NCBI GenBank assembly: GCA_034440395.1
Contig: JAWXBW010000064.1
Coordinates: 1,025 to 65,024, forward strand
Reading direction: 5' to 3'
DNA from: Blastochloris sp.
Lineage (GTDB): Bacteria; Verrucomicrobiota; Verrucomicrobiia; Methylacidiphilales; JAAUTS01
Length of the DNA: 64,000 nt
Numbering within the stretch: position 1 is the stretch's first letter; the number at the start of each line of letters is the position of its first letter. The notes under the pieces were generated by a model. The model saw only the letters and a list, made by a program, of their open reading frames with translations. It made no database searches and was not told where the DNA came from. Below, in pieces: positions 36,484 through 61,169 of the stretch. A program made the position numbers and the translations under genes.

Positions 36484-36495
36484 GGGTGGGAAAGC

Positions 36496-44010: not shown

Positions 44011-44305
44011 GCTGATGAAGATGCTTGATTCAAAAAGGCTACTCCCGATCCTTTTAAGGGAAAAATAAGCGTCCGCTAAGTAAGTAATCTGACTGTGCTT
44101 TGGCGAATAATTAGCTGCATTATTTGTATTTCAAAAAAACTTATACGATTCCTGTAGCTAGTGTTTATGAGCCAAGGAGAGGCAAAGCCGCTTTAAATTT
44201 TAATGCGACATGGTCTCATATCAGAACGGCATTGACAAGGCATCCTTGAGATGAGAATTCATGTTCGGTAAAAATGATAATTAGTAACAAAACACGTCTT
44301 ATAAG

Positions 44306-44325
44306 TTGCACAACTAACTGTGCAA
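44306..44325. promoter_or_regulatory. perfect inverted repeat TTGCACA-N6-TGTGCAA, 44 nt upstream of actA (candidate operator)
   Basis: Read directly from the sequence. It is the only clean palindrome in the 358-bp gap preceding the respiratory operon. Confidence 0.3.
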
Positions 44326-44368
44326 AAAAGATTGTTTAAAATAATTATTAAGGAACATTGTAGGACAG

Positions 44369-45022
44369 ATGGCAAATATTTTCCCGACTTGGACGAAGTG
44401 GCTACCGCTCAAACTGGTTATCGCAATGCTCTGCCTAGGCACGATGACGGCGGTGGCTGTTACTTATTACTTCACTCCCAAATATACCCGAGTAGGTTAT
44501 CAACCCATCCAACCCGTCAGCTTCGATCATTCCCTACATGTCAACCAACTCGGTATCGACTGCCGTTACTGCCATCAATCGGTTGAGGTATCTGGCACGT
44601 CTAGCGTTCCCTCAACGCAGACCTGCATGACTTGTCATACGCAAATAAAAAAGCAGAGTCCTAAGTTGGAAATTGTTCGCAGTAGTTGGGCTACGGGCGA
44701 GTCTATTCCTTGGGTGAAGATTCACAAAGCGCCTGACTATGTTTATTTCAATCATGCCATTCACGTGAACAGTGGAGTCAGTTGTTACAGTTGCCATGGC
44801 CAGATAAATCAAATGGAGGTCGTGTGGCATGACCAGCCGCAAAGCATGGGCTGGTGTTTAGAATGTCACCGCCATCCTGAAGGTAATGTTCGTCCTAAGG
44901 ATCAGGTCTATAACATGGACTGGCGAGCCGAGAGTCCTTCGGTGCAACGTAAAGAAGGTCAGAAATTTGTAAAGGAATGGAATATTAACCCGCCCGTAAA
45001 TTGTGCAGCCTGCCATCGCTAA
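44369..45022 (+). CDS. actA: Alternative Complex III subunit ActA, pentahaem cytochrome c
   Basis: 217 aa with an N-terminal TM anchor. Five CxxCH motifs are present: CRYCH, CMTCH, CYSCH, CLECH and CAACH. Confidence 0.85.
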   Translation: MANIFPTWTKWLPLKLVIAMLCLGTMTAVAVTYYFTPKYTRVGYQPIQPVSFDHSLHVNQLGIDCRYCHQSVEVSGTSSVPSTQTCMTCHTQIKKQSPKLEIVRSSWATGESIPWVKIHKAPDYVYFNHAIHVNSGVSCYSCHGQINQMEVVWHDQPQSMGWCLECHRHPEGNVRPKDQVYNMDWRAESPSVQRKEGQKFVKEWNINPPVNCAACHR

Positions 45023-45028
45023 GACCTC

Positions 45029-48000
45029 ATGAAACGCATTGTTGAACATCCTCCAGAAACTGGTGCCGCAAAAGCTTATTGGCGCAGTGTCGAAGACTTT
45101 TCCCATACAGAACAATTTCAAGGTTGGCTTAAGACCGAATTCCCTCAGGGTGCGGCCGAGTTCTGGGGAGATGGTGTTTCTCGTCGGAGTTTCTTACGTT
45201 TGATGGGAGCTTCCATGGCTTTGGCTGGGCTGGGCTTGTCAGCCTGTCGTCGGCCTGAGGCGCATATTTTACCTTTCACAAAAACGCCGGAGTGGCAGAT
45301 CCCCGGTAAAACCTTAAACTACGCCACAAGCCTACCCCGTCGTAATGGTGGCGCACCTCTCCTCATTACGAGCTACAGTGGTCGTCCTATTAAGATAGAA
45401 GGTAATCCTTTGCACGAGGCCTGTAAAGGTAAGAGCGACTCCCTAGCCCAGGCTTCGATTCTCAATCTTTATGACCCTGACCGCTCCAACAGGTTTCTAA
45501 AAAACGGTAAAAATATTTCTTCTGCAGATGCTATCAAAGCTCTCGCTGAATGGAAAAAATCATGGCAAGCCAATCAAGGCAAAGGTTTAGCTATTCTTTC
45601 TGAAGATAATCTTTCTCCGACGGAAGATCGTCTCCAAGCAGAGTTCTCCGCTAAATATCCTGCCGCCGTGCGTGCCGTTTATGAGCCTGCGACTACAGGT
45701 TTTGCTCAAGCCGCAATCGAAACCGCTTACGGTAAAGGCTCCATTATCCGCTACAATTACGAGAAGGCTAAAGTCATTCTCTCCCTCGATGCGGATTTCC
45801 TCACAGGCGATGAAGCTACTTTAGCTTCCGTGCGTGGTTTTGCTGATGGCCGGCGCATGGAGAATGCTGATTCCCCGATGAACCGCCTCTACGCTATCGA
45901 GAGTCGTTACACCAACACAGGAGCCGCCGCAGATCACCGCCAACGCTTGCCTGCCAGCCATATCGCAGCCGTGGCAGCTAAATTAGCAGAACTAGTTGGC
46001 GCAAAAAGTTTGCCTATCTTCCAAGCCCTTCCTGAGTTGCAAATGGATCCAAAGTGGATCATAGAAGCGGCCAAGGATTTAATGTCAGCAGAAGGCAGAG
46101 CACTCGTGGTAGCTGGATCCAATCAGCCCGCCAGCGTTCATCTCGCTGTCGCCGCCATCAACGAAGCGTTAAAGGCTCAAGGCATCACCTTTGAAATTTA
46201 CAAAAGACCCCGACCAACATCACTCAGCATCGTTGAGCTTGCCGACGTAATCAAGTCTGGACAAATCACCGATCTCGTCATCCTCGGTTGTAACCCTGTT
46301 TATAACGCTCCCGCCGATTTGAACTGGACCGAGCTACAGAAATCCGTTAACACGGTCATTCGCCTCGGTGCCTATGAAGACGAGACTGCAGCTCTTTCCA
46401 CGTGGCATTTACCTCAAGCGCATTATCTCGAAACATGGGGAGATTCGGTATTACAAGATGGCTCCCACGGTTGCATGCAGCCTTTAATTCTGCCTTTGTA
46501 CGATGGCCTTTCCTCTTCCCAATTTTTAGCCTACCTCCTCGATGCCCCTGCAGGAGTAGATAAAGTCTGGGTAGACGGCCCCGAGCTTGTCCAAGAAACT
46601 TTTAAAACCAAGGTTGCCGCTTTTGCCACGACCTACGCTTTCGATAATGCCTGGAGTCTTTTCGTGCGCGACGGATTTCTAAAAGATTCCAAACCTAGAG
46701 CGCAAGCTTCGCCATTTGTTTTTGCTGGTGCCAGCATGATCGCTGAGACACGTATCGCCAGCCCGCAAGCATTGAGTAAAGACAATCTCGAAGTGGTTTT
46801 TATCACGGATACAAAAGTGGATGACGGTCGCTATGTTAACAACGGTTGGCTTCAAGAGTTACCCGATGGCATCACAAAATTGACCTGGGATAACGCTGCC
46901 CTCATGAGTGCTAAAACGGCGGATGAACTTGGAATTTATTCTGGTGTTCACGTTAAGGGAATAGTTGCGGGTTTAACTGATGCGGGCATTTACTTTTCCG
47001 ACGTGATTACTCTCACCGTGGATGGACGCAGTTTGGATATCCCTTTCCTCATCGTGCCAGGACATCCTGACTACACCCTTACCTTACCACTCGGCTATGG
47101 CCATGAGAAAACAGGACGCGTTGGCCAAGGCGTCGGCTTCAACGCTTACAAACTACGCACTAGCCAAGCCCCTGCTATTTTAACTAATGCCACAGTCATT
47201 AAAACTTCCGCCCCGCGCTATAAATTCGCCATTACTCAAGAGCATTGGAGCATGGAAGGCCGTGATATCGTCCGTGAAGCTCCCATCGCTTATTATAAAG
47301 AAAACCCCGGATTCGTCCGAGCTCTCGGTATCGAAAGTCATACCCCAGAGAATATTACTTTCTACAAATCACCACCTTTTGATTATGAAAAGTATCATCA
47401 GTGGGGCATGTCCATTGATTTAACTACTTGCATCGGTTGCAACGCTTGTGTCATTGCTTGCCAGAGTGAAAACAATATAGCTATCGTCGGTAAAGACCAA
47501 GTCGCTAAAGGCCGTGAACTAAGTTGGATCCGGATCGACCGTTACTTCTCTGGTTCCCAACGTGACATTGAAATGGGTAAAGGCGTTATCCCGAGTGATC
47601 CTGAGATGATTCTTCAACCCGTTACCTGTTTGCACTGCGAAAACGCACCATGCGAGACCGTTTGCCCGGTCAATGCCACCGTCCACAATGAGGAAGGTCT
47701 TAACGTCATGGTCTATAACCGTTGCATCGGTACACGTTACTGCGCCAACAATTGCCCCTACAAAGTTCGCCGCTTTAATTGGTTTGATTACAATCAACGT
47801 CAACTCGACCAGCTTTATTGGGGCCCACTCGGTCCGAAAAAGGTCGAAGAAACTATCAAGCTTTCTAAGAACCCTAATGTCTCTGTTCGTATGCGCGGCG
47901 TCATGGAAAAATGTACATTCTGCGTGCAACGGATCGAGACTGCTAAGATCGATCATAAAATCCTGACCAAGCGCACAGAGCGTAAAATCCCTACCGATAG

Positions 48001-48343
48001 TCTGCAAGTGGCCTGCCAACAGGCTTGCCCAGCAGACGCCATTGTCTTTGGTGATCTATCCGATCCTAACAGCCGTGTGACAAAACTTAAATCACGTGAG
48101 CTTGACTACAGCCTATTAGATTATTTAAACACCAGACCCCGTCTAACCTATCTAGCTCGTGTCCGTAATCCTAACATGCGTATGCCTGGTGCAGAACTAG
48201 TTGGAATGAGCCTTGTTAATGCTCGTATCCATCACCATGCTGAAACAGAAGGGCACGGAGAAGAAGGCGCAGCACACGGCGACACTAAAGCTCATGGACA
48301 TGAGGCCGAAGCAAAACCAGCGGAACATGGATCTAAACATTAA
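45029..48343 (+). CDS. actB: Alternative Complex III subunit ActB (molybdopterin-oxidoreductase-like + 4Fe-4S ferredoxin-like fusion)
   Basis: 1104 aa. Tat signal '[23 protein letters not shown]'. Fe-S motifs are '[16 protein letters not shown]', '[14 protein letters not shown]', '[19 protein letters not shown]' and 'CTFCVQR...[14 protein letters not shown]'. Confidence 0.9.
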
Positions 48344-48348
48344 GTGAT

Positions 48349-49776
48349 ATGAGCGAACAATCATCAACCTACTTTGGGCCAGCCAAGGGTAACATCCTTG
48401 AACGCCGTCCTTTGGTTTCTAATAATCGTAGCATGGGTTGGATCACCGCTCACATTGCGGGGATGCTCGAGGGTAAGATGCCTATGTGGTGGCTGATCGC
48501 CGTTGTCATCACTGGGGTATGGGCCTTGCTCGTTCCCTTAGAATTAACCTATCTCGTCAGCACAGGAGTTGGTATCTGGGGATCGAATCAACCCGTCGCT
48601 TGGGCTTGGGACATAACCAACTTCGTCTTCTGGATCGGTATCGGTCACGCTGGAACCTTGATCTCGGCTATTCTTTTTTTGACTCGTCAAAAATGGCGCA
48701 CTTCCATCAACCGTGCGGCGGAAGCCATGACTATTTTCGCCGTGATCTGCGCGGGTATCTTCCCCGCCTTCCACGTCGGTCGTGTGTGGATGGCGTGGTA
48801 TCTCGCACCTATTCCTAACGCTAACGCCATCTGGCCTAACTTTAAAAGCCCACTCCTTTGGGACGTTTTTGCCGTTTCTACTTATTTTACGGTTTCGTTA
48901 ATTTTCTGGTATATCGGACTGGTTCCTGACCTCGCCACCATCCGCGATCGTGCCACGGGTAAGTTTCGTAAATTCATCTATGGCGTAGCTGCTCTGGGCT
49001 GGCGTGGGGGTAATCGTCAATGGCGCCACTATGAAAAAGCTTACTTGATTTTAGCAGGTATCTCTACGCCCCTCGTGCTTTCCGTTCACTCCATTGTGTC
49101 CTTTGACTTTGCTACCTCCGTCATCCCTGGCTGGCATACGACGATCTTCCCGCCTTACTTCGTGGCAGGAGCTATTTTCGGCGGCTTCGCCATGGTCTTG
49201 ACGCTCATGATCCCCGCCCGCGCTATCTTCGGTCTGCATGACATGATCACTCGTAAGCATATTGATAACATGGCTAAGATCATCGTTCTTACTGGATCCA
49301 TTGTCGGTTACGCCTACTTGATGGAGCTTTTCATTGCATGGTATAGCGGAAATCCGAACGAATGGTGGGCCTTCCTTCATAACCGTATCCATCCTGAGGC
49401 ACCTTACGCCTGGGCTTATTGGTCTATGATGTTTTGTAACGTAATCGCCCCACAGCTCTTTTGGTTTAAGTGGTGTCGCACGAACATTCTCGCCGTCTGG
49501 ATTATTGTGCAATTTCCAAATATAGGCATGTGGTTTGAGCGTTTTGTTATTATCGTTACATCCTTACATCGTGACTTCTTGCCCTCTTCTTGGGGTATGT
49601 TTGTGCCGTCTGTTCATGACATCCTTCTTTTCTTCGGCACCTTTGGTTTGTTCCTATTCTTGTTCTTACTTTTCTTAAGATTTTTACCAGCCATTACGAT
49701 TTTCGAAGTTAAAGCCGTGCTGCCTGAGGCAGATCCGCACTACGTCGATCCTCATGCGAAGGGACATCAACACTAA
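48349..49776 (+). CDS. actC: Alternative Complex III subunit ActC (NrfD/PsrC-like quinol-binding membrane subunit)
   Basis: 475 aa polytopic protein of the NrfD type ('[34 protein letters not shown]'), at the position after actB. Confidence 0.85.
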
Positions 49777-49782
49777 TCGCAT

Positions 49783-50325
49783 ATGAAAGAGGATCAGAAA
49801 AAAATTCACGGTATTGGAGCCGAATTTAACAACGCTCAAGAACTCTATGTAGCCGCTAAAAAACTGCGCGCATCAGGTTTCAAGCGGTGGGACGTTTTTT
49901 CTCCATACCCTATTCACGGCATGGATGACGCCATGGGACTCCCTAACTCTAAAGTCTCCTTCTTCTCTCTTTGTGGAGGCATCGTGGGAGCCGCCACAGC
50001 CTTCTTCCTTATTTGGTACACCTCAGGGGTGGAGTATCCCTTAGTAGTGCAAGGTAAACCGCACTTTGCCTTTGAGCCGACTTTTCCAGTCTTTTTTGAA
50101 ATAACGATTCTTCTGACGGCGTTCTTCACCGTGGGAAGTATGTTGGTCTTAAATTTCTTGCCCCGCTATTATCACCCCGTTTTCAACTGGGATCGTTTTG
50201 CTAAAGTTACGGACGATAAATTTTTTGCCGTGATCGAGTCGTCGGATCCGCTCTTTCATGAGGCAAAAACAAAAGCACTTTTGGAGGATTTAGGTGGCAC
50301 GCATGTGACGCTCATTGAGGAATAA
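49783..50325 (+). CDS. actD: Alternative Complex III subunit ActD (DUF3341)
   Basis: 180 aa. 'IHGIGAEFNNAQELYVAAKKLRASGFKRWDVFSPYPIHGMDDAMG' is followed by two TM helices, which is the typical ActD layout. Confidence 0.75.
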   Translation: MKEDQKKIHGIGAEFNNAQELYVAAKKLRASGFKRWDVFSPYPIHGMDDAMGLPNSKVSFFSLCGGIVGAATAFFLIWYTSGVEYPLVVQGKPHFAFEPTFPVFFEITILLTAFFTVGSMLVLNFLPRYYHPVFNWDRFAKVTDDKFFAVIESSDPLFHEAKTKALLEDLGGTHVTLIEE

Positions 50326-50935
50326 CATGAAAGTTTTCTTTTTTAGTTTATTAGTAGCCATTGTGGCCGTAGTAGCCATAGCGGGTTTGCGCGGCACAAA
50401 GACAACCTCGACCCCGGTTGAGATTTTTTCCGATATGGATCATCAACCCAAGGCCAAAGCTCAAACAGAGAGTCGTTTTTTTGCGGATGGTCGGAGCGAC
50501 CGTCTTCCCGTCTCAGGCACTATCCCGTCGAAGGTTCCCGTAGAAGAGCCGTATAAAGTAACAGGAAAGATTGAAGGTTATTGGGGCGACGGTATTCCAT
50601 CAGAAGTCACCACAGAATTTCTAGCTCGCGGTAAAGAACGTTACATCATCAACTGTGCCGTATGCCATGGAGATACTGGGGCTGGGAATGGCATCACCAG
50701 TCAATACGGTCTCGTGGGATCGGCTAATTACAACACCGACCGCTTACGCCAAGTTCCAGATGGTTACCTTTATAACGTAGTCGTGCACGGTAAAAATAAC
50801 ATGATCGGATTACCGCATATTCAATTAGAAGATCGTTGGGCCATAGTGGCCTACATCCGTGTTTTACAACGGGCTGGCAACAGCCGCATTCAGGACGTCC
50901 CTGAAGAAGAAGCTAAAAAACTTTTGAGCCCATGA
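50315..50935 (+). CDS. actE: Alternative Complex III subunit ActE, monohaem cytochrome c
   Basis: 206 aa with a signal/anchor sequence, a single 'CAVCHG' and a distal 'NMIGLPH' Met region. The start may be ATG 50327. Confidence 0.8.
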   Translation: MRNNMKVFFFSLLVAIVAVVAIAGLRGTKTTSTPVEIFSDMDHQPKAKAQTESRFFADGRSDRLPVSGTIPSKVPVEEPYKVTGKIEGYWGDGIPSEVTTEFLARGKERYIINCAVCHGDTGAGNGITSQYGLVGSANYNTDRLRQVPDGYLYNVVVHGKNNMIGLPHIQLEDRWAIVAYIRVLQRAGNSRIQDVPEEEAKKLLSP

Positions 50936-52179
50936 GTGAACATACCTTACAAGCACCTAAAGAAGAGCGTTTAAATGTGACAAAGTTAGGGATCATTCCC
51001 GTTGCTTTGCTCGCACTGAGCGTCGTATTGTTAGGCTTTAGCCTTCTCTTCGGCTATTTCTTCAATCCACAACAACTAGCTTATTCTTGGTTGGTATCCT
51101 TCATGTGGGTTTTCACTATTAGTGCAGGCTGTTTCTTTTGGGTTTTAGTCCATCATGCGGTGGATGCGGATTGGTCTGTCGTCGTCCGTCGTATTATGGA
51201 AACTATCGGCTCACTTTTCTTTCCATGGATTTTATTATTGTTTATTCCCATGTACTTTATGGTTCCACTGATTTATAAATGGTGGACGATCAAACCTGGA
51301 GTGGATTTCCTCCTTGATCACAAAGCCGCTTTTCTCAATCACCAGGTTTTCTGGGGTAAAGCCGCTTTGTATTTCCTTTATTTCGGTTTTGCCACATGGT
51401 TCATGCGCCGCATCTCCATTCAGCAAGATGCTACAGGCGATCCTTTTTTAACCATAAAAATGCGTAAATATGCATATGGTTTTATGCCTCTGTTTGCGGT
51501 TCTCATTACCTTTGCTTTCCTAGATTGGATCATGGGGTTGAATCATCACTGGTATTCTACCATGTTTGGAGTTTACCTTTTCGCAGGCACTGCGGGTGGT
51601 GGGATAGCCATCACCATCTTGGTCAGCAACGCCCTTCGTGCCGCTGGTTATCTCAGAGGAGTGGTTACGGTTGAGCACAACCACATCATGGGCAAGCTGC
51701 TCCTGGCCTTCACTATCTTTTGGGCCTACACAGCATTCAGCCAATACATGCTGATCTACTACGCTAACATTCCTGAAGAAACCATTTTCTATGTTCACCG
51801 CAACACGAACAGTTGGCTTTACGTGAGTATCTTTATCGTCTTTGCTCGTTTCCTCATCCCTTTTATCATGCTCTTGACCCAACCAGCTAAACGGAATCCT
51901 TTCCGTATTTGTTTCACGGCGGCGTGGATACTTGTTATGCATGTGGTAGATTTACACTGGTTGATTATGCCACAAATGCAAATTTTTCAAGCGATCAAAG
52001 CAGGGCACCCCCATGGCGCAGCAGAGTATTTACACTTTGCCCCTCATATCTTAGATTTAACCGTTTTAGTGGGGATGATCTGTCTCTTGGCTTTTGTCTT
52101 CCTCCGCCGTTTCTCTAAAGCTTCTATTTTTCCCGTGCGTGATCCGCGTCTCTTTGATTCTGTCACGCTAACTAACTAA
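50932..52179 (+). CDS. actF: Alternative Complex III subunit ActF (second NrfD-like membrane subunit)
   Basis: 415 aa polytopic protein. ATGA overlap with actE, at the canonical position. Confidence 0.8.
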   Translation: MSEHTLQAPKEERLNVTKLGIIPVALLALSVVLLGFSLLFGYFFNPQQLAYSWLVSFMWVFTISAGCFFWVLVHHAVDADWSVVVRRIMETIGSLFFPWILLLFIPMYFMVPLIYKWWTIKPGVDFLLDHKAAFLNHQVFWGKAALYFLYFGFATWFMRRISIQQDATGDPFLTIKMRKYAYGFMPLFAVLITFAFLDWIMGLNHHWYSTMFGVYLFAGTAGGGIAITILVSNALRAAGYLRGVVTVEHNHIMGKLLLAFTIFWAYTAFSQYMLIYYANIPEETIFYVHRNTNSWLYVSIFIVFARFLIPFIMLLTQPAKRNPFRICFTAAWILVMHVVDLHWLIMPQMQIFQAIKAGHPHGAAEYLHFAPHILDLTVLVGMICLLAFVFLRRFSKASIFPVRDPRLFDSVTLTN

Positions 52180-52195
52180 ACTTATTAATTTAACC

Positions 52196-52588
52196 ATGGC
52201 TAACGAAGAAATTTTTTTTAAAAAGTCTGTCCCCACGTGGAAGGTAGTGGTCTGCTCACTTCTTGGATTTATCCTGCTGAGCAGTGCGGCGTTGATCGTG
52301 CGTAATTATTTAAATGAACCTGCCGTGGTAGATCAAAAAATAGTGGATGAACGGGTGGAACGCTTGAAGAAATTACGGGAAGAAATGGTGCAGGCTAAGA
52401 CCCAATACGCATGGGAAGACAAAGCTACTGGCGTTGTCCGCATCCCTCTGGAAGCCGCCCTTAACCTAGCACTCCCAGAAATCCGTAATCGAGTTTTACA
52501 GAAATCTAATGTATTAGTGGACCCCATTGTAGCAGCAGCTCCCGCCACTGCCGTCCCAGCTGAAGCGGCCCCCGGAGTGAAAAAATAA
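52196..52588 (+). CDS. single-TM membrane-anchored protein of unknown function (ActG-like position)
   Basis: 130 aa with one TM ('WKVVVCSLLGFILLSSAALIV') and a charged helical region. It lies between actF and ccoS with gaps of 16 nt and 1 nt. Confidence 0.5.
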   Translation: MANEEIFFKKSVPTWKVVVCSLLGFILLSSAALIVRNYLNEPAVVDQKIVDERVERLKKLREEMVQAKTQYAWEDKATGVVRIPLEAALNLALPEIRNRVLQKSNVLVDPIVAAAPATAVPAEAAPGVKK

Positions 52589-52589
52589 T

Positions 52590-52826
52590 ATGGTTTTATA
52601 CTATATTCTCATGCTCGTATCCCTCGTAGTTTTGGGCGGCAGCGCCGTCTATGCTCTTTACTGGGCTGCTAGTCATGGACAATTCAAAAAAATGGAGCAA
52701 AACGCCACCACTATTTTTGATAGCGACGAGCCCGTGGGCGAACCGACTGATGCCTTCCCTGGAATAGATTTAAAAAAAGAAATCGAGCATCGCGCCAAGG
52801 CCAAAGAAAAGAGTAAGAAAGTTTAG
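52590..52826 (+). CDS. ccoS: cbb3-type oxidase maturation protein CcoS/FixS-like
   Basis: 78 aa. 'YYILMLVSLVVLGGSAVYALYWAASHGQFKKMEQNATTIFDSDEP' follows the CcoS pattern (TM, then W..SGQ[FY], then an acidic tail). Confidence 0.65.
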   Translation: MVLYYILMLVSLVVLGGSAVYALYWAASHGQFKKMEQNATTIFDSDEPVGEPTDAFPGIDLKKEIEHRAKAKEKSKKV

Positions 52827-52827
52827 T

Positions 52828-54372
52828 ATGTCAAAAAATCTCTATGGAACACCCACGGATTCTACTGATGCCCAAGAACGCGCGTTAGTGGACGCTTCGT
52901 GCCGCATTCCCGTTTTACTATTCATTGCTAGTTCTGTCTTCTGGCTGCTTGTAGGGACGGTCTTCGGTTTAATTGCTTCCATCAAATTACATAACCCCCA
53001 TTTCTTGATCGAACTACCACGATGGTTCGCTCTCTACCTCGACAAGTTTTCACCCGATGGAACAGTGGACTTTATCAACGCCATGTTGACTTTTGGTCGC
53101 GTGCGCCCTGCTCACTTAAATATCGTAGCCTACGGCTGGGCCTCGGCCTCGGCTCTCGGAGTAGCTATCTGGTTGATGGCTCGACTTTGTCGGGCACCAC
53201 TACGTTTCCCAGCCTTAGTAACGGCCGCCATGGTGTTATGGAACATTGCTATTGCCATTGGAACCATCGCTATCCTCGGCGGTAAAAGCACATCAATTGA
53301 ATGGCTAGAGTTTCCAAGTTACGTCAGCATAATGCTTTTCGTTTCTTACGCCCTCATTTCCATCTGGGGCGTAAACATGTTCGTGCATCGTAAACCTGGA
53401 CACGTTTATGTTTCTCAATGGTATATTATGGCGGCACTGTTTTGGTTTCCATGGCTTTACGGCACCGCCAATTTATTGTTAATCTTTGCACCCATTCAAG
53501 GATCTTCCCAAGCCATTGTTAACTGGTGGTATGGACATAACGCTCTGGGCCTCTGGTTCACCCCGATTGGTTTAGCCGCTGCTTATTATTTTATCCCAAA
53601 GGTCATTGGACGCCCTGTTCATAGCTACTATCTTTCCGCTTTTGGTTTCTGGGCCTTAGCTTTATTTTATAGTTGGAATGGTGGACATCACCTTATAGGT
53701 GGGCCGCTCCCTGCGTGGCTGATTACGTCTAGCATCGTAGCCAGTTTGATGATGTTTGTGCCCGTCCTCGTGACGGCCATCAACCATCACATGACAATGA
53801 AGGGAAACTTCCACATGTTGCATTACAGCCCGACCTTACGCTTTGTCGTCTTCGGCGCTATGTCCTACACTTTAGCAAGTCTTCAAGGTAGCAGCATGGC
53901 CTTTCGTTCTTGGAACTCGTTGACCCATTTTACTCATTACACGATTGGGCATTCTCACTTAGGGTTGTATGCCTTTTTCACCATGATCATGTTTGGCTCC
54001 ATCTATTACATTGTGCCTCGACTAACCCGCAGAGAGTGGCCTTCGATCACCTTGATTAAAATCCATTTCTGGGGCTCGGCTTATGGTATCATCCTTATGG
54101 TGTTGGTTCTCAGTGTAGGAGGGGTTGTGCAAGGCTGGATGATGAATAACCCGCAGATTCCCCAAAATACTTTTGAAAATATCCTTAAAATCACGAATCC
54201 TTACCTTTTCGCCCGCAGTTTATCGGGAGCCTTGCTCATGGTGGCGCACATCGCCTTCGCCCTTAACCTAACGCTTATTCTTCTAGGCTGGGGAAAGAAA
54301 ACTGGCGGCCCAACGCTCTTTAACCAACTCGAAGCTAGCGAAGAAGCTAAACCTAAGGAGTCCACACTATGA
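52828..54372 (+). CDS. ccoN: cbb3-type cytochrome c oxidase subunit I
   Basis: 514 aa. 'WWYGHNALGLWFTP', 'WNGGHHLIGGPLPAW' (CuB His pair) and 'TIGHSHLGLYAFFT'. Confidence 0.88.
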   Translation: MSKNLYGTPTDSTDAQERALVDASCRIPVLLFIASSVFWLLVGTVFGLIASIKLHNPHFLIELPRWFALYLDKFSPDGTVDFINAMLTFGRVRPAHLNIVAYGWASASALGVAIWLMARLCRAPLRFPALVTAAMVLWNIAIAIGTIAILGGKSTSIEWLEFPSYVSIMLFVSYALISIWGVNMFVHRKPGHVYVSQWYIMAALFWFPWLYGTANLLLIFAPIQGSSQAIVNWWYGHNALGLWFTPIGLAAAYYFIPKVIGRPVHSYYLSAFGFWALALFYSWNGGHHLIGGPLPAWLITSSIVASLMMFVPVLVTAINHHMTMKGNFHMLHYSPTLRFVVFGAMSYTLASLQGSSMAFRSWNSLTHFTHYTIGHSHLGLYAFFTMIMFGSIYYIVPRLTRREWPSITLIKIHFWGSAYGIILMVLVLSVGGVVQGWMMNNPQIPQNTFENILKITNPYLFARSLSGALLMVAHIAFALNLTLILLGWGKKTGGPTLFNQLEASEEAKPKESTL

Positions 54373-54992
54373 ATAGTCTGAGAACCTTATTTATAGGCTT
54401 CACCATTACGTTCACTTTAGCATGGTTAGGTTTAGTTATTATTCCTTATTTTCAATTAGGTCAACTTGCCCCGCAAGTGGATGAAGACGCTGGCATGTCC
54501 TATCCTCTCATCCGCAGTGGATTGGCTGAACGTGGCAAACAAGTTTATCAAGCTAACGGTTGTATCTATTGTCATTCCCAGCAGGTTCGCCCAATGGATG
54601 CCGACCCTATCAAAGGCCGTGGTTGGGGACCACGCCGCACCGTGGCGCGTGACTACATTTACGATAAACCCCATCTCCTAGGCACGATGCGCACGGGACC
54701 TGATTTGACCAATATCGGCAAACGCCAACCCAGTGCAGACTGGCATCACGCCCACCTTTATGCACCTCAAAGCATGGCTGAATATTCCGTCATGCCTCCT
54801 TACCGGTACCTTTACACGGTGCAAAAAATCAAAAGTACCCCTAACCCTAAAGCCGTTAAATTAGCTAAAGGTTATCAGCCTGAAGAAGGTTACGAAGTTA
54901 TTCCTACTCCTGATGCCATCGCCCTCGTGGCTTACCTTCAAAGCATGGATCGCACCTACGCATTGCCCGAAGCACCCCTACCTAAAGAATGA
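54369..54992 (+). CDS. ccoO: cbb3-type cytochrome c oxidase subunit II, monohaem
   Basis: 207 aa. 'GKQVYQANGCIYCHSQQVRP', 'LGTMRTGPDLTNIG' and 'WHHAHLYAPQS'. ATGA overlap with ccoN. Confidence 0.88.
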   Translation: MNSLRTLFIGFTITFTLAWLGLVIIPYFQLGQLAPQVDEDAGMSYPLIRSGLAERGKQVYQANGCIYCHSQQVRPMDADPIKGRGWGPRRTVARDYIYDKPHLLGTMRTGPDLTNIGKRQPSADWHHAHLYAPQSMAEYSVMPPYRYLYTVQKIKSTPNPKAVKLAKGYQPEEGYEVIPTPDAIALVAYLQSMDRTYALPEAPLPKE

Positions 54993-55759
54993 GCACGCAC
55001 GACGAACATAATCCAGCACCGCAACACTCTGAGGATCATGATCCACAGCTGTTGGGTATTGACTACTCTGAGCAAAATAATGTTTCTCAGATCCATGAGA
55101 CGCTTTTGCGCGAAAAACCAGAGCCTTCTGACGGCATGGAACCCGTTCCTATTTTGTTGATTGCTATAATCGCTTTTGTTTTTTCCATCGGCGGTTTCTA
55201 TGGTGGTAGATATTTTTCCAGCACCGATCCTATGGTCTATGATGAAAATCCTGGCTCCTCTATTGTTGCCGCAGCTAAGGCAGGTGGCCCTACTACGGAA
55301 GTGGCTCTCGATCCTATTGCTGATTTAGTTAAACTGGGAAAAAGGCAATACAGTAATAATTGTGCATCTTGCCATCAGCCCACGGGGCTGGGATTAGCTG
55401 GCCAATACCCTCCCTTAGCCGGTTCAGAATGGGTCGTAGAAGCAGAGCGTCCGTTAATCGCTATTCTCGTTCACGGTTTACAAGGCTCCGTCGATGTCAA
55501 GGGTCAAACTTACAACGGTGCCATGCCTGCATGGGGTAAGAGCATGAGCGATCGTCAGATCGCCGCTGTGCTAACCTACATTCGCCAGGAATGGGGGAAC
55601 ACCGCTGGCCCGATTTCGCCTGACCAGATTAAAGCGATCCGTACAGAACTAGAAGGACGCGCTAAGGAATGGTCAGAGGCCGAACTGAAAGCTTTACCTA
55701 AAGATCCTGTTCCAGGCGGATTGACTGCCGCCGCACCTGTCGCTGCAAAGAAGTCGTAA
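54989..55759 (+). CDS. membrane-anchored monohaem c-type cytochrome in the CcoP position
   Basis: 256 aa with one TM ('VPILLIAIIAFVFSIGGFYGG') and a single class-I domain 'CASCHQPTGLGLAGQYPPLAGSEWV...YNGAMPAWG'. It has one CxxCH, where canonical CcoP has two. Confidence 0.7.
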   Translation: MSTHDEHNPAPQHSEDHDPQLLGIDYSEQNNVSQIHETLLREKPEPSDGMEPVPILLIAIIAFVFSIGGFYGGRYFSSTDPMVYDENPGSSIVAAAKAGGPTTEVALDPIADLVKLGKRQYSNNCASCHQPTGLGLAGQYPPLAGSEWVVEAERPLIAILVHGLQGSVDVKGQTYNGAMPAWGKSMSDRQIAAVLTYIRQEWGNTAGPISPDQIKAIRTELEGRAKEWSEAELKALPKDPVPGGLTAAAPVAAKKS

Positions 55760-55818
55760 TTTGAGCTCAGTCATGTATAATGTCGCACGAAGCGTTTTAA
55801 AATTCAAAGTATCTCATT

Positions 55819-57678
55819 ATGGAAACCAACATTAACCACTCCAACGCCCACACTTCTCACGACGATCAGGGTCACCATGAACATCAGGAACTTAAGTTCT
55901 GGCAAAAATATATTTTCTCGGTAGATCATAAAGTCATCGGCATCCAATACGCCATCACGGCTCTCTTGTTCCTTCTCCTGGGCTTCGCCCTCATGGGTTA
56001 CATGCGTTATCAACTAGCCTATCCCGACACCGCAGCGCCTTACGGTTTTGGTAAAGCCCTGACCGCCCTCGTTGGTCAAGAAATGGCTCCTGACGGTAAA
56101 ATGTCGGGTGCCCTTTATAATTCTTTCGGTGCCATGCACGGCACCATCATGGTTTTCCTGGCGATTGTTCCTCTCGCTGTCGGTGCCTTCGGGAACTTCG
56201 TCGTTCCGCTGCAAGTGGGGGCAGGGGACATGGCCTTTCCCAAACTAAATGCCGCTAGCTATTGGACCTACCTACCAGGAGGCGTCATTATGTTGATCAG
56301 CTTCTTTGTGCCTGGAGGTGCCGCTAAATCAGGCTGGACTTCCTATGCCCCGCTCTCAGTAATCTCCGACCACGGCCCCGCTTTTCACCCCATAATGAAT
56401 GGGCAAACTTTATGGCTCATTGGCATGACGGTGCTAATCTTTTCCTCCCTACTCGGCTCCGTCAACATGATCGTTACGATCGTTCAGCTTCGTGCTAAAG
56501 GCCTAACTTGGATGCGTCTTCCTTACTTCGTCTGGGCTCAATTTGTTACCGCTTTCCTTTTGCTCTTAGCCTTCCCCCCCCTTCAAGCTGCAGGCGTTAT
56601 GCAGTTGATGGATCGTATCGCAGGCACCAGCTTTTTCATGCCAACAGGCTTAGTCGTCAATGGTCAAATCTGGGATCATAGTGGAGGCGGCAGCCCTCTT
56701 CTCTGGCAACATCTCTTCTGGTTCCTTGCTCACCCGGAGGTGTATGTGTTGATTCTTCCTGCTCTCGGCATCGTGGCTGAAGTTGTTTCGAATAACACCC
56801 GCAAACCCATCTGGGGCTATAAATCTATGGTTTATGCGACCTTATTTCTTGGTGTTGTCTCCTTCACGGTCTGGGCTCACCACATGTATCTCACTGGCAT
56901 GGGCACCAAGGTCAGTAGTTTTTTCCAAACTACGACCATAATAATTTCCATTCCCTCCGTTATTATCCTTAGCTGCCTCGTCATATCGCTCTATGGCGGT
57001 TCCATTCGTTTTAACACCCCTATGCTCTTCGCTGTAGCCTTCATGCCTATGTTCGGACTGGGCGGTTTAACAGGTATTCCTTTAGCCTTTAATGCCACAA
57101 ATATTGTTCTGCACGATACCTACTACGTCATTGGCCACTTCCATTACATTGTGGCACCGGGCACCATCTTCGCCATGTTCGCCGGCATCTACTATTGGTA
57201 TCCGAAAGCAACGGGTCGTAAGATGAGCGAATTTCTCGGTAAACTTCATTTCTGGCCCTCACTTATTTTAATGAACGGAATTTTCATGCCCATGTTCTTC
57301 CAAGGTTTAGCCGGCGTACACCGCCGCTGGCACACGGGTGGCGTTGTCAATGGAGAGGCTCTTTTTGAAGTAACCAAACATGCGCTGCACTGGAACTCCT
57401 TCATGTCTTGGAGTGCATGGTTACTGGCCGTAGCACAAATCCCTTTCATCATCAATTTCTTCTGGGCTTGGAAACGTGGAGAAAAAGTGGGAGACAATCC
57501 TTGGGAAGCTACCACCTTAGAATGGAATACTCCCACCCCACCGCCTCATGGTAATTTCTTGAAAGAACCCATCGTCTATCGTGGTCCTTACGAATACAGC
57601 GTTCCGGGCGAAGATAAAGATTTCACGCCATCATGGGAAGAGCCGAAGAAAAGTAAGACGGACCTAGTGAACCTTTAA
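55819..57678 (+). CDS. ctaD: haem-copper oxidase subunit I, A-family (aa3-type)
   Basis: 619 aa. 'DHKVIGIQY', 'FWFLAHPEVYVLILPALG' (HPEV Glu of the A1 type), 'WAHHMYLTGMG' and 'HDTYYVIGHFHY'. Confidence 0.92.
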   Translation: METNINHSNAHTSHDDQGHHEHQELKFWQKYIFSVDHKVIGIQYAITALLFLLLGFALMGYMRYQLAYPDTAAPYGFGKALTALVGQEMAPDGKMSGALYNSFGAMHGTIMVFLAIVPLAVGAFGNFVVPLQVGAGDMAFPKLNAASYWTYLPGGVIMLISFFVPGGAAKSGWTSYAPLSVISDHGPAFHPIMNGQTLWLIGMTVLIFSSLLGSVNMIVTIVQLRAKGLTWMRLPYFVWAQFVTAFLLLLAFPPLQAAGVMQLMDRIAGTSFFMPTGLVVNGQIWDHSGGGSPLLWQHLFWFLAHPEVYVLILPALGIVAEVVSNNTRKPIWGYKSMVYATLFLGVVSFTVWAHHMYLTGMGTKVSSFFQTTTIIISIPSVIILSCLVISLYGGSIRFNTPMLFAVAFMPMFGLGGLTGIPLAFNATNIVLHDTYYVIGHFHYIVAPGTIFAMFAGIYYWYPKATGRKMSEFLGKLHFWPSLILMNGIFMPMFFQGLAGVHRRWHTGGVVNGEALFEVTKHALHWNSFMSWSAWLLAVAQIPFIINFFWAWKRGEKVGDNPWEATTLEWNTPTPPPHGNFLKEPIVYRGPYEYSVPGEDKDFTPSWEEPKKSKTDLVNL

Positions 57679-57688
57679 AAATAAATTC

Positions 57689-58489
57689 ATGGACATCCCC
57701 TACACAGTTAATAATCGTCCCGACACAGGCCTCTACAATGCTAAGCTCGGCATGTGGCTCTTCCTCGCCTCGGAAGTGATGCTCTTTGGCGGCCTCTTCA
57801 GTGCCTATATCTTTCTCCGCCTCGGAGCAGATGACGGCATGTGGCCGCACCAAATCCTTGATGTTAAACCCGCCTTCATCAACACCATGATCCTTATCAT
57901 TTCCAGCGTGACCATTGTCCAAAGCTGGGCCGCGGTGAAAATGGGGAACTTGAAAAAGTTTAAGCTCTACATGGGTATGACCATTCTTCTCGCCTCCGCC
58001 TTCGTCGGTATTAAGAGCTACGAGTATTACACTAAGGTTCATCACTACGGTTTAATTACCAATACACGTATTCAAGTCACTGGTTACCTTGATCAAGATA
58101 AAACGAACGATCAAGTCGTCGCCATCATCCCTGATAAACATCAGGCCTTTGAATCGGGTAAGAAATTCATGGAAACGAAACTGGAAGCTGGTGCCGTTTC
58201 CGCTGGACACCACGAGCCTATCCTTTTTCAACGGAGTGATCTGGTTTGGTTCTCCAACTTCATGCCTCGCTATAACACCTTTTTTGCTATCTATTTCACC
58301 ATGACCGCCTTACACGCATTGCACGTCATCGGGGCGATTGTCGTGCTGGCCTACTTCTGGGGGCCAGGCAGTAAAATGTTCCACACCAACCGTGCGCAAT
58401 TCGCTAACCGAATCGAAGTCGTCGGTTTATTCTGGCACTTTGTTGAGCTAGTTTGGATCTTCCTCTTCCCCGTGCTTTACCTCCTTTGA
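57689..58489 (+). CDS. ctaE: cytochrome c oxidase subunit III
   Basis: 266 aa. 'GMWLFLASEVMLFGGLFSAYIF', 'YFTMTALHALHVIGAIV' and 'VGLFWHFVELVWIFLFPVLYL'. Confidence 0.85.
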   Translation: MDIPYTVNNRPDTGLYNAKLGMWLFLASEVMLFGGLFSAYIFLRLGADDGMWPHQILDVKPAFINTMILIISSVTIVQSWAAVKMGNLKKFKLYMGMTILLASAFVGIKSYEYYTKVHHYGLITNTRIQVTGYLDQDKTNDQVVAIIPDKHQAFESGKKFMETKLEAGAVSAGHHEPILFQRSDLVWFSNFMPRYNTFFAIYFTMTALHALHVIGAIVVLAYFWGPGSKMFHTNRAQFANRIEVVGLFWHFVELVWIFLFPVLYLL

Positions 58490-58533
58490 GTAATCCGTCT
58501 TGAATTTAACCTAAATAAAACTAAACTATATCT

Positions 58534-58851
58534 ATGGCATCGACTGAAAACCCCGAGCAAATTAAACAAATTGTTAAACAACATTGGGTCATAGCCGGCT
58601 TACTGTTTACCCTCATTCTCATCTCCATCGGCATCGCCCAAATTCCTTTTGTTACATGGGCGCACATGGCCATTGGCTTAGGGATCTCCTTTGTTATGGC
58701 CAGTTTAGTGCTGTGGTTTTTTATGCATCTTTCAAATGAGCGTAAACTTATTTATCAGGTCATGGTGTTTAGCGTCATATTTTCCATCGTCCTTGTGGCC
58801 TTATCCTTACTGGCCTACTTTGATCACTCTGGCTACAACGTAAAATACTAA
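58534..58851 (+). CDS. prokaryotic cytochrome c oxidase subunit IV family protein
   Basis: 105 aa with three TM helices. 'LVLWFFMHLSNERK' matches the COX4_pro 'FMHL' signature. Confidence 0.65.
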   Translation: MASTENPEQIKQIVKQHWVIAGLLFTLILISIGIAQIPFVTWAHMAIGLGISFVMASLVLWFFMHLSNERKLIYQVMVFSVIFSIVLVALSLLAYFDHSGYNVKY

Positions 58852-58869
58852 TCAACTTAGGAGCCCACC

Positions 58870-59082
58870 ATGTCACTTAAAGCTTTTCATGTTATTTTTG
58901 TCACCCTCACCACACTATTTTCTTTGGTGGGAGCACGCTGGGCCTTTCAAATTTACCAGCAAACCTCAAGCTTAGAAATGAAGGTCGTTTCCTTTAGCTC
59001 CATCGCCATTGCCGTCGCATTACTCGTTTACGGAGTCTGGTTTTATCGTAAATTAAAAACCCATCCTGCTTACCAAAACTAA
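58870..59082 (+). CDS. small two-TM membrane protein, unknown
   Basis: 70 aa with two hydrophobic helices, embedded in the cox operon with gaps of 18 nt and 7 nt. Confidence 0.4.
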   Translation: MSLKAFHVIFVTLTTLFSLVGARWAFQIYQQTSSLEMKVVSFSSIAIAVALLVYGVWFYRKLKTHPAYQN

Positions 59083-59089
59083 TACCCCC

Positions 59090-59359
59090 ATGAAACTCTT
59101 CTCACGCCCGTTCATTCTTGCGCTTCTCTCAGGACTTGCCTTGGCCGAAGCTCAAGCCTGCACAGTTTGCGGAGCGGAAGCGGGGCAAAAGGCTTCGGAC
59201 GCCGCCAGCCTAGCCATCGGCTTCCTACTCATCATCATTCTTCTCGTCATCGGCGGAATTGGCTCCGTCGTAGCTTCCATCATGTTACGCACACGCAAAC
59301 TTAACCGTGCGGCTGAACTCTCCCAAGCCTTAGAACTTAAGCCTCATTCCCCTTTATGA
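59090..59359 (+). CDS. small exported/anchored protein with CxxC, unknown
   Basis: 89 aa. The signal-like N-terminus 'LLSGLALAEAQAC' is followed by 'CTVCG' and one TM. The stop overlaps the coxB start (ATGA). Confidence 0.4.
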   Translation: MKLFSRPFILALLSGLALAEAQACTVCGAEAGQKASDAASLAIGFLLIIILLVIGGIGSVVASIMLRTRKLNRAAELSQALELKPHSPL

Positions 59360-60120
59360 TTACTACGTTCCTAGGACTTCCTCCAGACGCCTCAGCCGAA
59401 GGATTTGTTATTGATCACTTATTAGAAATTGTTCACTGGTTCATTATTGCCCTTTTCATTGGCTGGGCGATTTTCTTTTTTTACATGCTCTGGCGTTTCC
59501 GCGCAGGTAAAAATCCCAAAGCCCAATACGCAGGCTTGAAATCTCACATGAGCACTCACGCTGAAATAGGGGTTGTTGCCATCGAAGTTCTGCTCCTACT
59601 AGGACTAGCCATTCCTATCTGGGCAGTGCAAGTTAAAGAATTCCCCACTGTTGGAGCCATTCCAGTCCACGCTATCGCCTACCAATTTGGTTGGCAGTTC
59701 CATTACCCAGGTGAAGACGGCGTCTTTGGTCGTCAAAACTTCCGTCTCACCACTGGTTCAAATCCCATCGGCCTTGACTGGACAGATCCCGCCTCAAAAG
59801 ACGATGTAGTGGTCATGAATACCATGAAAGCTCCTTTGAATAAAAAACTCGCCATTCGCGTCACCTCTAAGGATGTAATCCATAATTTTTCCGCTCCCAG
59901 CTTTCGCGTCTCCAAGGACGCTATTCCTGGCATCATGAATCCCATTTGGTTTACCCCTATCAGATTAGGGGAATACGATATCATCTGTGGGCAGCTCTGT
60001 GGCTCGGGTCATGGCGTTATGAAAGGCACGGTCGAGGTTATCAACCAAGAAGATTTTGACGCCTTCATCAAGGCCACTAAGTCCGCACCCGCAGAGGCGC
60101 AACTCTCATCGATACCTTGA
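59356..60120 (+). CDS. coxB: cytochrome c oxidase subunit II (CuA; no fused cytochrome c domain)
   Basis: 254 aa with two N-terminal TM helices. The CuA motif is H-X34-'CGQLCGSGHGVM' (spacing counted by hand). Confidence 0.85.
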   Translation: MITTFLGLPPDASAEGFVIDHLLEIVHWFIIALFIGWAIFFFYMLWRFRAGKNPKAQYAGLKSHMSTHAEIGVVAIEVLLLLGLAIPIWAVQVKEFPTVGAIPVHAIAYQFGWQFHYPGEDGVFGRQNFRLTTGSNPIGLDWTDPASKDDVVVMNTMKAPLNKKLAIRVTSKDVIHNFSAPSFRVSKDAIPGIMNPIWFTPIRLGEYDIICGQLCGSGHGVMKGTVEVINQEDFDAFIKATKSAPAEAQLSSIP

Positions 60121-61169
60121 GCACAACGGCATCTTCCCAAAAACAAATAGGCTATTGGCTCGTAGCCGTAGCCCTTTCTATTTGGTTAATGGTTATCATC
60201 GGTGGTACCACCCGTCTGACAGGCTCAGGTCTCTCCATTACGGAATGGAAGCCTATCATGGGAATTTTACCTCCTATGAATGGAGAGCATTGGGATGAAG
60301 CCCTGCAAAAGTATCGAGCTACCCCACAATTTCGCATTTCAAATCCAGACATAACTCTGGATGAATTTAAAGTCATCTTCTTTTGGGAATACATCCACCG
60401 CCTCTGGGGTCGCTTGATTGGCTTACTCTTTGCCCTTCCCTTGATTTATTTCACCCTGACCCGACAACTCACCCGGTCCCTAGCCGCAAAACTTTTCTTA
60501 ATCCTAATCCTAGGTGGGGCTCAAGGTTTTCTTGGTTGGTTCATGGTCATGAGCGGACTCGTTGACCGACCTTCGGTCAGTCCCTACCGCCTCACCGCAC
60601 ATCTCTTGCTAGCCCTAGCACTCTTCAGCGCTGTCCTTTGGTTAGCTTGCGATCAACTTTGTAGAGAAATTAAATTGAAGCATAAGCCCGCCTCGTGGTT
60701 AAAAATAGCGTTACCAGCCTTGCTTGTGCTGCTTTGTTTGCAAATAGCTTGGGGCGGATTCATGGCTGGCGGAAAAATGGCCATGAGCTATCCCAGCTTC
60801 CCTGACTTTAACGGGCAATGGCTCCCCTCAGGACTTTTTCAATTCAACTCCTTTTGGAGACATATCTGCGAGCAGGCTGCCGCTGTTCACCTTATCCACC
60901 GCACACTAGGAACCTTACTTGTTCTAGGAATACTTGTGCTCTGGTGGAAAACCCGCCACTACGCTTGGACAGGTTTGCTCGGTTGGGCCCGTCAGGCTCT
61001 TGTGGTCTGCGTTATTGTGCAATTTCTCCTAGGAGTTATGACGGTCTTGCAATCTATCGGCCATATCCCCATCTTCTGGGGTGTCGCCCACCAAGGTACT
61101 GCGGTGGCCTTGCTCGGCAGCTTCCTCATCCTCTGGCATCAAATAGCTACAGCTGCGGCGCAGAAGTGA
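60117..61169 (+). CDS. ctaA: haem A synthase (COX15/CtaA)
   Basis: 350 aa. 'IIGGTTRLTGSGLSITEWKPIMGILPPMN...W...F..Y' and multiple TM helices carrying His ('YIHRLWGR', 'AAVHLIHRTLG', 'GVAHQGTA'). Its start overlaps the coxB stop. Confidence 0.85.
   Translation: MSTTASSQKQIGYWLVAVALSIWLMVIIGGTTRLTGSGLSITEWKPIMGILPPMNGEHWDEALQKYRATPQFRISNPDITLDEFKVIFFWEYIHRLWGRLIGLLFALPLIYFTLTRQLTRSLAAKLFLILILGGAQGFLGWFMVMSGLVDRPSVSPYRLTAHLLLALALFSAVLWLACDQLCREIKLKHKPASWLKIALPALLVLLCLQIAWGGFMAGGKMAMSYPSFPDFNGQWLPSGLFQFNSFWRHICEQAAAVHLIHRTLGTLLVLGILVLWWKTRHYAWTGLLGWARQALVVCVIVQFLLGVMTVLQSIGHIPIFWGVAHQGTAVALLGSFLILWHQIATAAAQK

Follow-up and report, generated by a model that had tools for sequence, protein, structure and literature searches.

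Alternative complex III, cbb3-type and aa3-type oxidase genes in one same-strand cluster of a Verrucomicrobiota-like bacterium

Introduction

In verrucomicrobial methanotrophs (Methylacidiphilum) and in Opitutaceae the genes of alternative complex III (ACIII) are directly followed by those of a cbb3 oxidase (PMC8498564, PMC6688271, citing Refojo et al. 2010). The Verrucomicrobia studied in this respect possess no bc1 complex and combine ACIII with several cytochrome c oxidases which are differentially expressed (PMC8498564). A further arrangement, in which the ACIII genes are followed downstream by those of an A-family oxidase, is represented by Rhodothermus marinus (6f0k), Flavobacterium johnsoniae (6btm) and the acidobacterial ACIII-A2 caa3 “superoperon” (PMC8407424). 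Here we describe a gene cluster which combines both arrangements. It is located on a DNA stretch of 64,000 nucleotides (nt) from contig JAWXBW010000064.1, deposited under the name Blastochloris sp. and designated the window in the following, and comprises the ACIII genes, a cbb3 module and an aa3 oxidase module including the gene of haem A synthase.

Like the window, the clusters of Methylacidiphilum and Opitutaceae, which belong to organisms of the same phylum lacking bc1, display act genes directly followed by C-family oxidase genes on the same strand. Compared to them, however, the window adds an A1-type aa3 oxidase and ctaA at once, whereas the cited papers report the adjacency of ACIII and cbb3 alone and treat other oxidases as separate. 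With the ACIII-caa3/aa3 systems of R. marinus, F. johnsoniae and Acidobacteria the locus shares the A-family oxidase downstream of ACIII as well as ActA, ActD and ActF, which are clear homologues of those found there. In contrast to these systems, it contains a full cbb3 module between ACIII and the A-family oxidase, shows the unusual order ctaD...coxB-ctaA and encodes a CtaD of the A1 type (HPEVY). Its ActA carries five haems as in R. marinus, yet its CoxB, unlike that of caa3, is devoid of a fused cytochrome c. Clusters of Chthoniobacterales exhibit the same ACIII-cbb3 core followed by a same-strand A-family oxidase with haem A genes, but differ in gene order, in the presence of ctaB and sco1 and in the sequence of CtaD, which is about 45% identical to that of the window. 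Cytochrome cy of Rhodobacter capsulatus is a possible local electron shuttle for cbb3. The bc1-cbb3 supercomplex which contains this cytochrome (6xkw family) resembles the present locus in that a membrane-anchored monohaem cytochrome c accompanies cbb3; in the window, however, the quinol oxidoreductase is ACIII instead of bc1 and the tethered cytochrome, the function of which is predicted only, occupies the gene position of CcoP. No paper describing the triple ACIII-cbb3-aa3 layout was found in the literature searched; in public genomes this layout is common, and all of its parts belong to known families.

We consider it quite probable that the cluster represents, in a Verrucomicrobiota-like bacterium, a respiratory “superoperon” typical of the lineage, which is composed of two modules, ends in a branched chain and is probably subject to transcriptional read-through between the modules.

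Results

Organisation of the cluster

According to the list of open reading frames (ORFs) of the window, 18 consecutive ORFs, all of them on the + strand, extend from 44369 to 61169, just as the original prediction, which was made from the sequence without database searches, had it. The gene names proposed there, as well as the complete quinol-to-O2 chain encoded on one strand, are backed by matches to families, motifs and solved structures. The junctions within 44369-55759, computed from the ORF coordinates, amount to 6, 5, 6, -11, -4, 16, 1, 1, -4 and -4 nt, negative values denoting overlaps, which agrees with the statement that every junction in this part is an overlap or a gap of at most 16 nt. 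From 55760 on, the junctions measure 59 (55760-55818), 10, 44, 18, 7, -4 and -4 nt. The gap of 59 nt is present as described. The cluster is bordered by 358 nt of non-coding DNA on its 5' side and by about 580 nt on its 3' side. Flanking genes were considered as cluster members and rejected, as they code for xylose-isomerase-like TIM barrel, phosphotriesterase, methyltransferase-like and DUF4185 proteins, which are unrelated to respiration. Since the gene order is kept in other genomes, the succession of these ORFs is not due to chance.

Recurrence of the layout in related genomes

The 18 proteins of the cluster were mapped onto 80 species-representative loci surrounding relatives of CcoN. At least 9 kb of upstream sequence are available for 54 of these loci, and in 44 of them actB and actC are found upstream of ccoS-ccoN-ccoO and a cytochrome c gene. 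The 44 loci include representatives of Gemmataceae and Tepidisphaerales; the ACIII-cbb3 pairing is also present in Chthoniobacterales, Verrucomicrobiales and Limisphaerales and hence extends beyond the groups covered by the cited papers. A same-strand A-family oxidase follows within about 300 nt in seven of the 58 loci having at least 3 kb of downstream sequence, and six further short contigs end within the beginning of such an oxidase. Three loci (L081, L082 and L083), with CcoN identities of 69 to 74% and different flanking genes, show all 18 genes in the order of the window, actG, ccoS and the two small ORFs among them.

In addition, six homologues of CtaD (about 67-71% identity) were sampled blindly, with the presence on long contigs as sole criterion. 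Each of the six genes lies behind an ACIII-cbb3 set and shares its strand. The numbers of inserted genes in these loci are 0, 0, 1, 1, 4 and 9, and every insertion, partly consisting of opposite-strand genes, is situated at the junction between the cbb3 and the aa3 module. In these six loci, L085 to L090, the genes ctaB and sco1 stand behind ctaA, and a DUF420 gene is added in L087 and L089; none of these genes is present at this place in the window or in L081-L083. The survey of how often ACIII is followed by both oxidase families, which had been proposed together with the original prediction, accordingly reveals a layout that recurs widely. The unusualness implied there is not borne out, given that the ACIII-cbb3 arrangement is published and prevails among the loci surveyed, and that the triple layout reappears in L081-L083, with all sampled CtaD homologues and in the seven loci mentioned above.

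The A-family module behind the ACIII-cbb3 core occurs in two forms. The form of the window, with ctaD as first gene, is found in L001 and L011. In L010, L014, L016, L028, L035 and L042 the same slot is occupied by a module of Chthoniobacterales type, which reads coxB-ctaD-ctaA-ctaB-x-ctaE-sco1-DUF420 (e.g. positions 12854-19717 of L035) and which suggests a second, independent attachment behind ACIII-cbb3.

At the cbb3-aa3 junction of L085 (8899-9894), L090 (8722-9717) and L086 (6121-7143) we noticed the gene of a Pyr_redox_2 (thioredoxin-reductase-like) flavoprotein, which in L086 is followed by an encapsulated-ferritin-like gene.

ACIII genes

Judged by gene content and motifs, actABCDEF fits ACIII, for which quinol:cytochrome c oxidoreductase activity is predicted. 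The features of the cluster are compiled in Table 1. ActA matches the five-haem ActA chains of solved ACIII structures (8k9e_A, E 4e-70; 6f0k_A, E 8e-67) and differs from the longer F. johnsoniae type of 444 amino acids (aa), the extra mobile haem domain being absent. In ActB a weak match to the Molybdopterin family (PF00384) is accompanied by the TIGR04519 domain, a variant N-terminal domain of the twin-arginine translocation (Tat) type, at residues 15-56. The C-terminus of this subunit (window 48220-48343) is rich in histidine, with nine His among the last 40 residues. Within the coding sequence of actB, at 47784-47797, lies a perfect FNR/CRP-type palindrome, TTGATTACAATCAA, which is the sole perfect match in the 64 kb and may be due to chance. 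ActC is 60-74% identical to the proteins encoded at the ActC position of related loci. The true start of actE may be the ATG at 50327. ActF, which matches the ActF chains of solved ACIII structures, yielded no match in Pfam.

The 130-aa protein encoded next to actF (p130), which had been described as an anchor protein, yields no match in Pfam, NCBIfam or the PDB when used as a single sequence. A word-indexed homologue search returned p130 itself as the only match, and its AF2 model (mean pLDDT 79, pTM 0.35) has no significant fold match. A profile constructed from 40 homologues of p130, by contrast with the single sequence, matches 8k9e_G, which is deposited as ActG (E 6.8e-4), the motif SY..G.V.IPI.RAM.L being common to both. 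The position directly after actF is conserved in related loci, and at 50% identity the family falls into at least 234 clusters. We conclude that p130 is probably ActG, which would extend the ACIII set to actABCDEFG. ActG is not found in every ACIII cluster.

cbb3 module and tethered cytochrome c

CcoN matches the corresponding subunit of Pseudomonas stutzeri (3mk7_A, E 2.5e-58), with chain 9g6b_A scoring equally. Upon alignment to 9g6b_A, the stretches RPAHLN (RPxHxN), WWYGHNA, FYSWNGGHH and TIGHSH fall on the corresponding motifs. On the basis of the P. stutzeri structure, we take these motifs to contain the histidines of haem b, haem b3 and CuB and the cross-link tyrosine of helix VII. By its sequence, CcoN is clearly assigned to the C family, within which it would represent a divergent verrucomicrobial clade since its score is far below the equivalog cut-off of the ccoN model.

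The 256-aa cytochrome c encoded behind ccoO possesses one transmembrane-like segment (residues 53-71). The best matches of its haem domain are the cytochrome c domains present in Cu nitrite reductases and c552 of T. thermophilus (E 1e-18 to 1e-21), while the similarity to CcoP is much weaker (E about 1e-8). In nearly all related loci a cytochrome c gene follows ccoO. To our knowledge, CcoN and CcoO are the sole universal subunits of C-family oxidases, so that a monohaem third subunit does not exclude membership in the cbb3 group. The N-terminus of the 256-aa cytochrome (window 54989-55110) contains five His within the first 40 residues.

aa3 module

CtaD matches subunit I of P. denitrificans cytochrome c oxidase (1ar1_A, E 1.3e-112), and its translation holds the sequence AHPEVY, thus the HPEVY motif of A1-type enzymes which comprises the D-channel glutamate and the cross-link tyrosine. 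The first 40 residues of CtaD (window 55819-55940) include seven His. Subunit IV reaches 34 bits with TIGR02229, the cut-off of which is 37.25; in related loci, its homologues encoded at this place carry PF03626. CoxB displays, as read from the translation, the complete CuA pattern H-x34-C-x3-C-x3-H-x2-M, and contains neither a CxxCH motif nor a fused cytochrome c domain. Because of the full CuA pattern and the missing haem c motif, the enzyme is classified as an aa3-type cytochrome c oxidase, not as caa3 or as a quinol oxidase. The latter reading had been considered for the ctaD-coxB module and was rejected as CoxB retains all CuA ligands.

Of the two small proteins encoded between subunit IV and CoxB, s70 belongs to no known family, and s89 gave no family match in scans of Pfam and NCBIfam. 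The stop codon of s89 overlaps the start of coxB; the protein could be a helper of CuA assembly, a thiol-redox helper or a small subunit. The stretch behind ctaA (window 61170-61750), which measures about 580 nt, is AT-rich and non-coding.

Table 1. Features of the respiratory gene cluster and its borders. Positions refer to the window.
Feature	Position	Strand	Characteristics and evidence
Presumed promoter region of the cluster, non-coding	44011..44368	+	358 nt without ORF, between methyltransferase-like gene and actA
actA, pentahaem cytochrome c subunit, N-terminal membrane helix	44369..45022	+	five CxxCH motifs, one transmembrane-like segment
actB, fused B1 (molybdopterin-like) and B2 (4Fe-4S), Tat signal, 1104 aa	45029..48343	+	Fer4_7/Fer4_11 domains
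actC, NrfD/PsrC-like membrane subunit (quinol site)	48349..49776	+	PF03916 NrfD, E 1.7e-18
actD, ACIII-specific two-helix membrane subunit	49783..50325	+	PF11821 ActD, E 6e-60
actE, monohaem cytochrome c subunit	50315..50935	+	one CxxCH motif; PF13442 match
actF, second NrfD-like membrane subunit	50932..52179	+	R. marinus ActF 6f0k_F, E 5.7e-61; 8k9e_F, E 2e-47
Probable actG (p130), single-helix anchored protein, 130 aa	52196..52588	+	profile match to ActG
ccoS, cbb3 maturation protein	52590..52826	+	PF03597 FixS, 24.5 bits (cut-off 23.1)
ccoN, catalytic subunit of C-family haem-copper oxidase	52828..54372	+	best NCBIfam model TIGR00780 ccoN
ccoO, monohaem subunit II of cbb3	54369..54992	+	PF02433 FixO, E 2.4e-30; one CxxCH
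Membrane-anchored monohaem cytochrome c at CcoP position, c552-like domain, 256 aa	54989..55759	+	one CxxCH
Junction of 59 nt between cbb3 and aa3 module	55760..55818	+	TATAAT; 0-9 inserted genes in relatives
ctaD, subunit I of A-family (A1-type) cytochrome c oxidase	55819..57678	+	TIGR02891, 568 bits
ctaE, subunit III, internal insertion	57689..58489	+	PF00510 COX3, E 2.1e-16, two stretches; position conserved
Subunit IV (CoxIV/CtaF-like)	58534..58851	+	PF03626 (COX4_pro), 28.7 bits, just under cut-off 28.9
s70, small two-helix membrane protein, 70 aa	58870..59082	+	invariant MSL, H7 and YxVWF in 7 loci
s89, signal peptide, invariant A-C-x-x-C, one helix, 89 aa	59090..59359	+	invariant A23, C24 and C27 in 7 loci
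coxB, subunit II with CuA site	59356..60120	+	TIGR02866, 149 bits, above cut-off 147.7
ctaA, haem A synthase	60117..61169	+	PF02628 COX15-CtaA, E 1.5e-94

The junction between the modules and transcription signals

The 59-nt gap contains a perfect TATAAT hexamer at 55776-55781, which is combined with a poor -35 element, and its RNA is predicted to be unstructured (z = +1.3). A consensus scan of 43000-62500 revealed no terminator-like site in the gap or in the about 580 nt behind ctaA, and over the same range the counts of promoter and terminator consensus matches do not exceed those of shuffled sequences. Upstream of actA, sigma-70-like matches are weak (9 of 12) and no more numerous than in shuffles. 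Nothing operator-like emerged from an inverted-repeat search of three non-coding stretches, a search for FNR/CRP-type boxes found none in the regulatory regions, and an Rfam scan of the whole window returned no match.

In two of the loci sampled via CtaD, L086 and L088, opposite-strand genes separate the cbb3 from the aa3 module, so that the latter can stand as a unit of its own, and L085 and L086 have a conserved motif in common upstream of ctaD. On the comparative evidence, the boundary between the modules lies at the 59-nt gap. In the window and in the loci closest to it, transcription reading through from a promoter in front of actA appears at least as likely as a separate unit; both may apply, and an additional internal start in the gap is possible.

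Further features of the window and its taxonomic label

The nearest relatives of CcoN and CtaD come from Verrucomicrobiota, namely Methylacidiphilales, Chthoniobacterales and similar groups. The NCBI label “Blastochloris sp.” is attached to a metagenome-assembled genome with an identical p130 as well as to the closest locus, L001. Blastochloris is an alphaproteobacterial genus, and in view of the verrucomicrobial relatives of CcoN and CtaD and of the G+C content of the window (about 47%) this label looks wrong.

Outside of the cluster, three genes in a row on the + strand (13672-21604) code for a HAD-UbiA prenyltransferase fusion (499 aa), a protein with an FAD_binding_4 domain and a DUF2298/PMT_2 membrane protein of 1458 aa. 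This fusion is the sole UbiA-family gene in the window and stands in another context; the three genes look like part of a lipid-linked glycan pathway rather than like ctaB. At 34300-37401, on the - strand, two squalene/phytoene-synthase-family genes, one of them fused to an amine-oxidase-type flavoprotein, look like an HpnCDE-like squalene route. Two + strand ORFs upstream of the cluster (39012-41410; 295 and 504 aa) match no Pfam family. The region 62001-64000, which includes an MFS (major facilitator superfamily) transporter gene on the - strand, has a G+C content of 0.606 compared to 0.42-0.54 elsewhere.

Discussion

Starting from the observed gene content, cofactor motifs, conservation of gene order and position of the module boundary, we infer the following electron path and transcript structure. 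Module 1 (44369-55759), which would be translationally coupled, comprises actABCDEF, the probable actG, ccoS-ccoN-ccoO and the gene of the membrane-tethered monohaem c552-like cytochrome. Module 2 (55819-61169) comprises the genes ctaD-ctaE-coxIV of the putative A1-type aa3 oxidase, those of two small membrane proteins, the CuA-bearing coxB and ctaA, the latter encoding a haem A synthase which would be needed solely by the aa3 oxidase. Menaquinol would be oxidised by ActC and ActF, and the electrons would be passed on by the iron-sulfur clusters of ActB and the five haems of ActA to ActE. From there, either directly or through the tethered cytochrome c, they would reach CcoO and CcoN, which constitute the presumed high-affinity branch, or CuA of CoxB and subsequently the haems a and a3 of CtaD, which constitute the presumed low-affinity branch. 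A single quinol:cytochrome c oxidoreductase would thereby feed a branched chain end. As ActA is devoid of an extra mobile haem domain and no cytochrome c is fused to CoxB, the aa3 branch would need a separate cytochrome c. The tethered c552-like cytochrome, which is encoded where the two modules meet, suggests itself as candidate for this role. The ACIII-cbb3 core would be fixed and the aa3/haem A module would be attached to it in a separable manner, with the 59-nt gap marking its boundary. Transcription starting upstream of actA would probably read through this gap. The original prediction had asked if both oxidases receive their electrons from ACIII. Such a function is the expected default in this phylum rather than a new puzzle, as the members studied are devoid of bc1 and express their oxidases differentially (PMC8498564).

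Several observations weigh against this interpretation. The score of CcoN with TIGR00780 is 237.6 bits compared to an equivalog cut-off of 583, CcoO reaches 88.5 compared to an equivalog cut-off of 200.65 in NCBIfam, and CcoS falls below the cut-off of TIGR00847. With its single haem, the third subunit linked to cbb3 deviates from the dihaem CcoP. The genes ctaB and sco1, which are situated 3' of ctaA in more distant relatives, are absent from this position in the window. The TATAAT hexamer of the gap is absent from L081-L083 and the gap measures just 20 nt in L081, so that the view of two units rests on the more distant relatives. While the pairwise identities of CcoN and CtaD yield the same three locus groups, their ranks correlate weakly (rho 0.28, p 0.15); co-inheritance of both proteins is plausible. 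Finally, the visible sequence covers 64 kb of the genome, and bc1 or other cytochromes c may be encoded elsewhere.

Among the alternatives to a two-module superoperon, two appear to us possible, though rather unlikely. According to one of them, the gene order would reflect co-assembly and not just co-regulation, with ACIII, cbb3 and possibly aa3 forming a dedicated supercomplex which is bridged by the tethered c552-like cytochrome and ActG. This is consistent with the tight translational coupling of module 1 and with the conserved location of ActG and the tethered cytochrome at the ACIII-cbb3 and the cbb3-aa3 border, respectively. Moreover, supercomplexes of ACIII with aa3 or caa3 have been solved or proposed (PMC5928083, PMC8552683), and cbb3 is part of solved multi-subunit respiratory assemblies (6xkw, 9g83). 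On the other hand, the literature search brought up no supercomplex of ACIII with cbb3, the five-haem ActA lacks the extra mobile haem domain which is used in F. johnsoniae, the insertions between cbb3 and aa3 in relatives argue against an obligatory co-assembly with aa3, and adjacency alone does not prove contact. A more specific version, a new ACIII-cbb3 supercomplex in which ActG and the tethered cytochrome, the latter replacing dihaem CcoP, serve as lineage-specific bridges and in which this cytochrome also feeds CuA of the adjacent aa3, seems improbable to us. If true, one and the same ACIII would alternate between two partners, one of high and one of low affinity.

The other alternative, to which we assign the same limited likelihood as to a supercomplex in general, regards the cluster as two independent operons which merely abut, so that the aa3/haem A module is transcribed from its own promoter in the gap, separately regulated, and its adjacency to cbb3 functionally meaningless. 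The perfect -10 hexamer speaks in favour of it, as do the motif upstream of ctaD common to L085 and L086 and the opposite-strand genes in L086 and L088, where the aa3 module must be autonomous. Yet the -35 element is poor, the scan for promoters yields no more matches than shuffled sequences do, the hexamer is not conserved in the closest relatives, L081 with its short gap among them, and no terminator follows the cytochrome c gene. The linkage in all six sampled homologues, along with a second oxidase type in the same slot, is hard to reconcile with meaningless adjacency. That the C-family enzyme is a divergent reductase of a substrate other than O2, e.g. NO, which would leave the cluster with one true oxidase, is very improbable, since, notwithstanding the atypical monohaem protein at the CcoP position and the scores of CcoN, CcoO and the third subunit, which lie far below the NCBIfam equivalog cut-offs, the best matches by a wide margin are CcoN and CcoO of cbb3 including solved cbb3 oxidases, all histidine ligands of haem b, haem b3 and CuB align together with the helix-VII tyrosine, and the maturation gene ccoS directly precedes ccoN.

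Returning to the two-module superoperon as the reading we prefer, the locus by itself changes little, as its parts are known and so is the principle of an ACIII-oxidase superoperon. NCBI designates several A-family CtaD homologues (P0127, P0148, P0158 and P0225) as “cbb3-type cytochrome c oxidase subunit I”. In surveys which rely on annotation, the A-family module behind ACIII-cbb3 would thus escape notice. What the comparison adds is that an A-family module appears to have been attached behind the ACIII-cbb3 core at least twice and in two forms, for one of which all insertions in the six sampled loci are located at a single junction. A cultured relative such as Chthoniobacter or Methylacidiphilum could reveal the way in which a single ACIII serves oxidases of two families.

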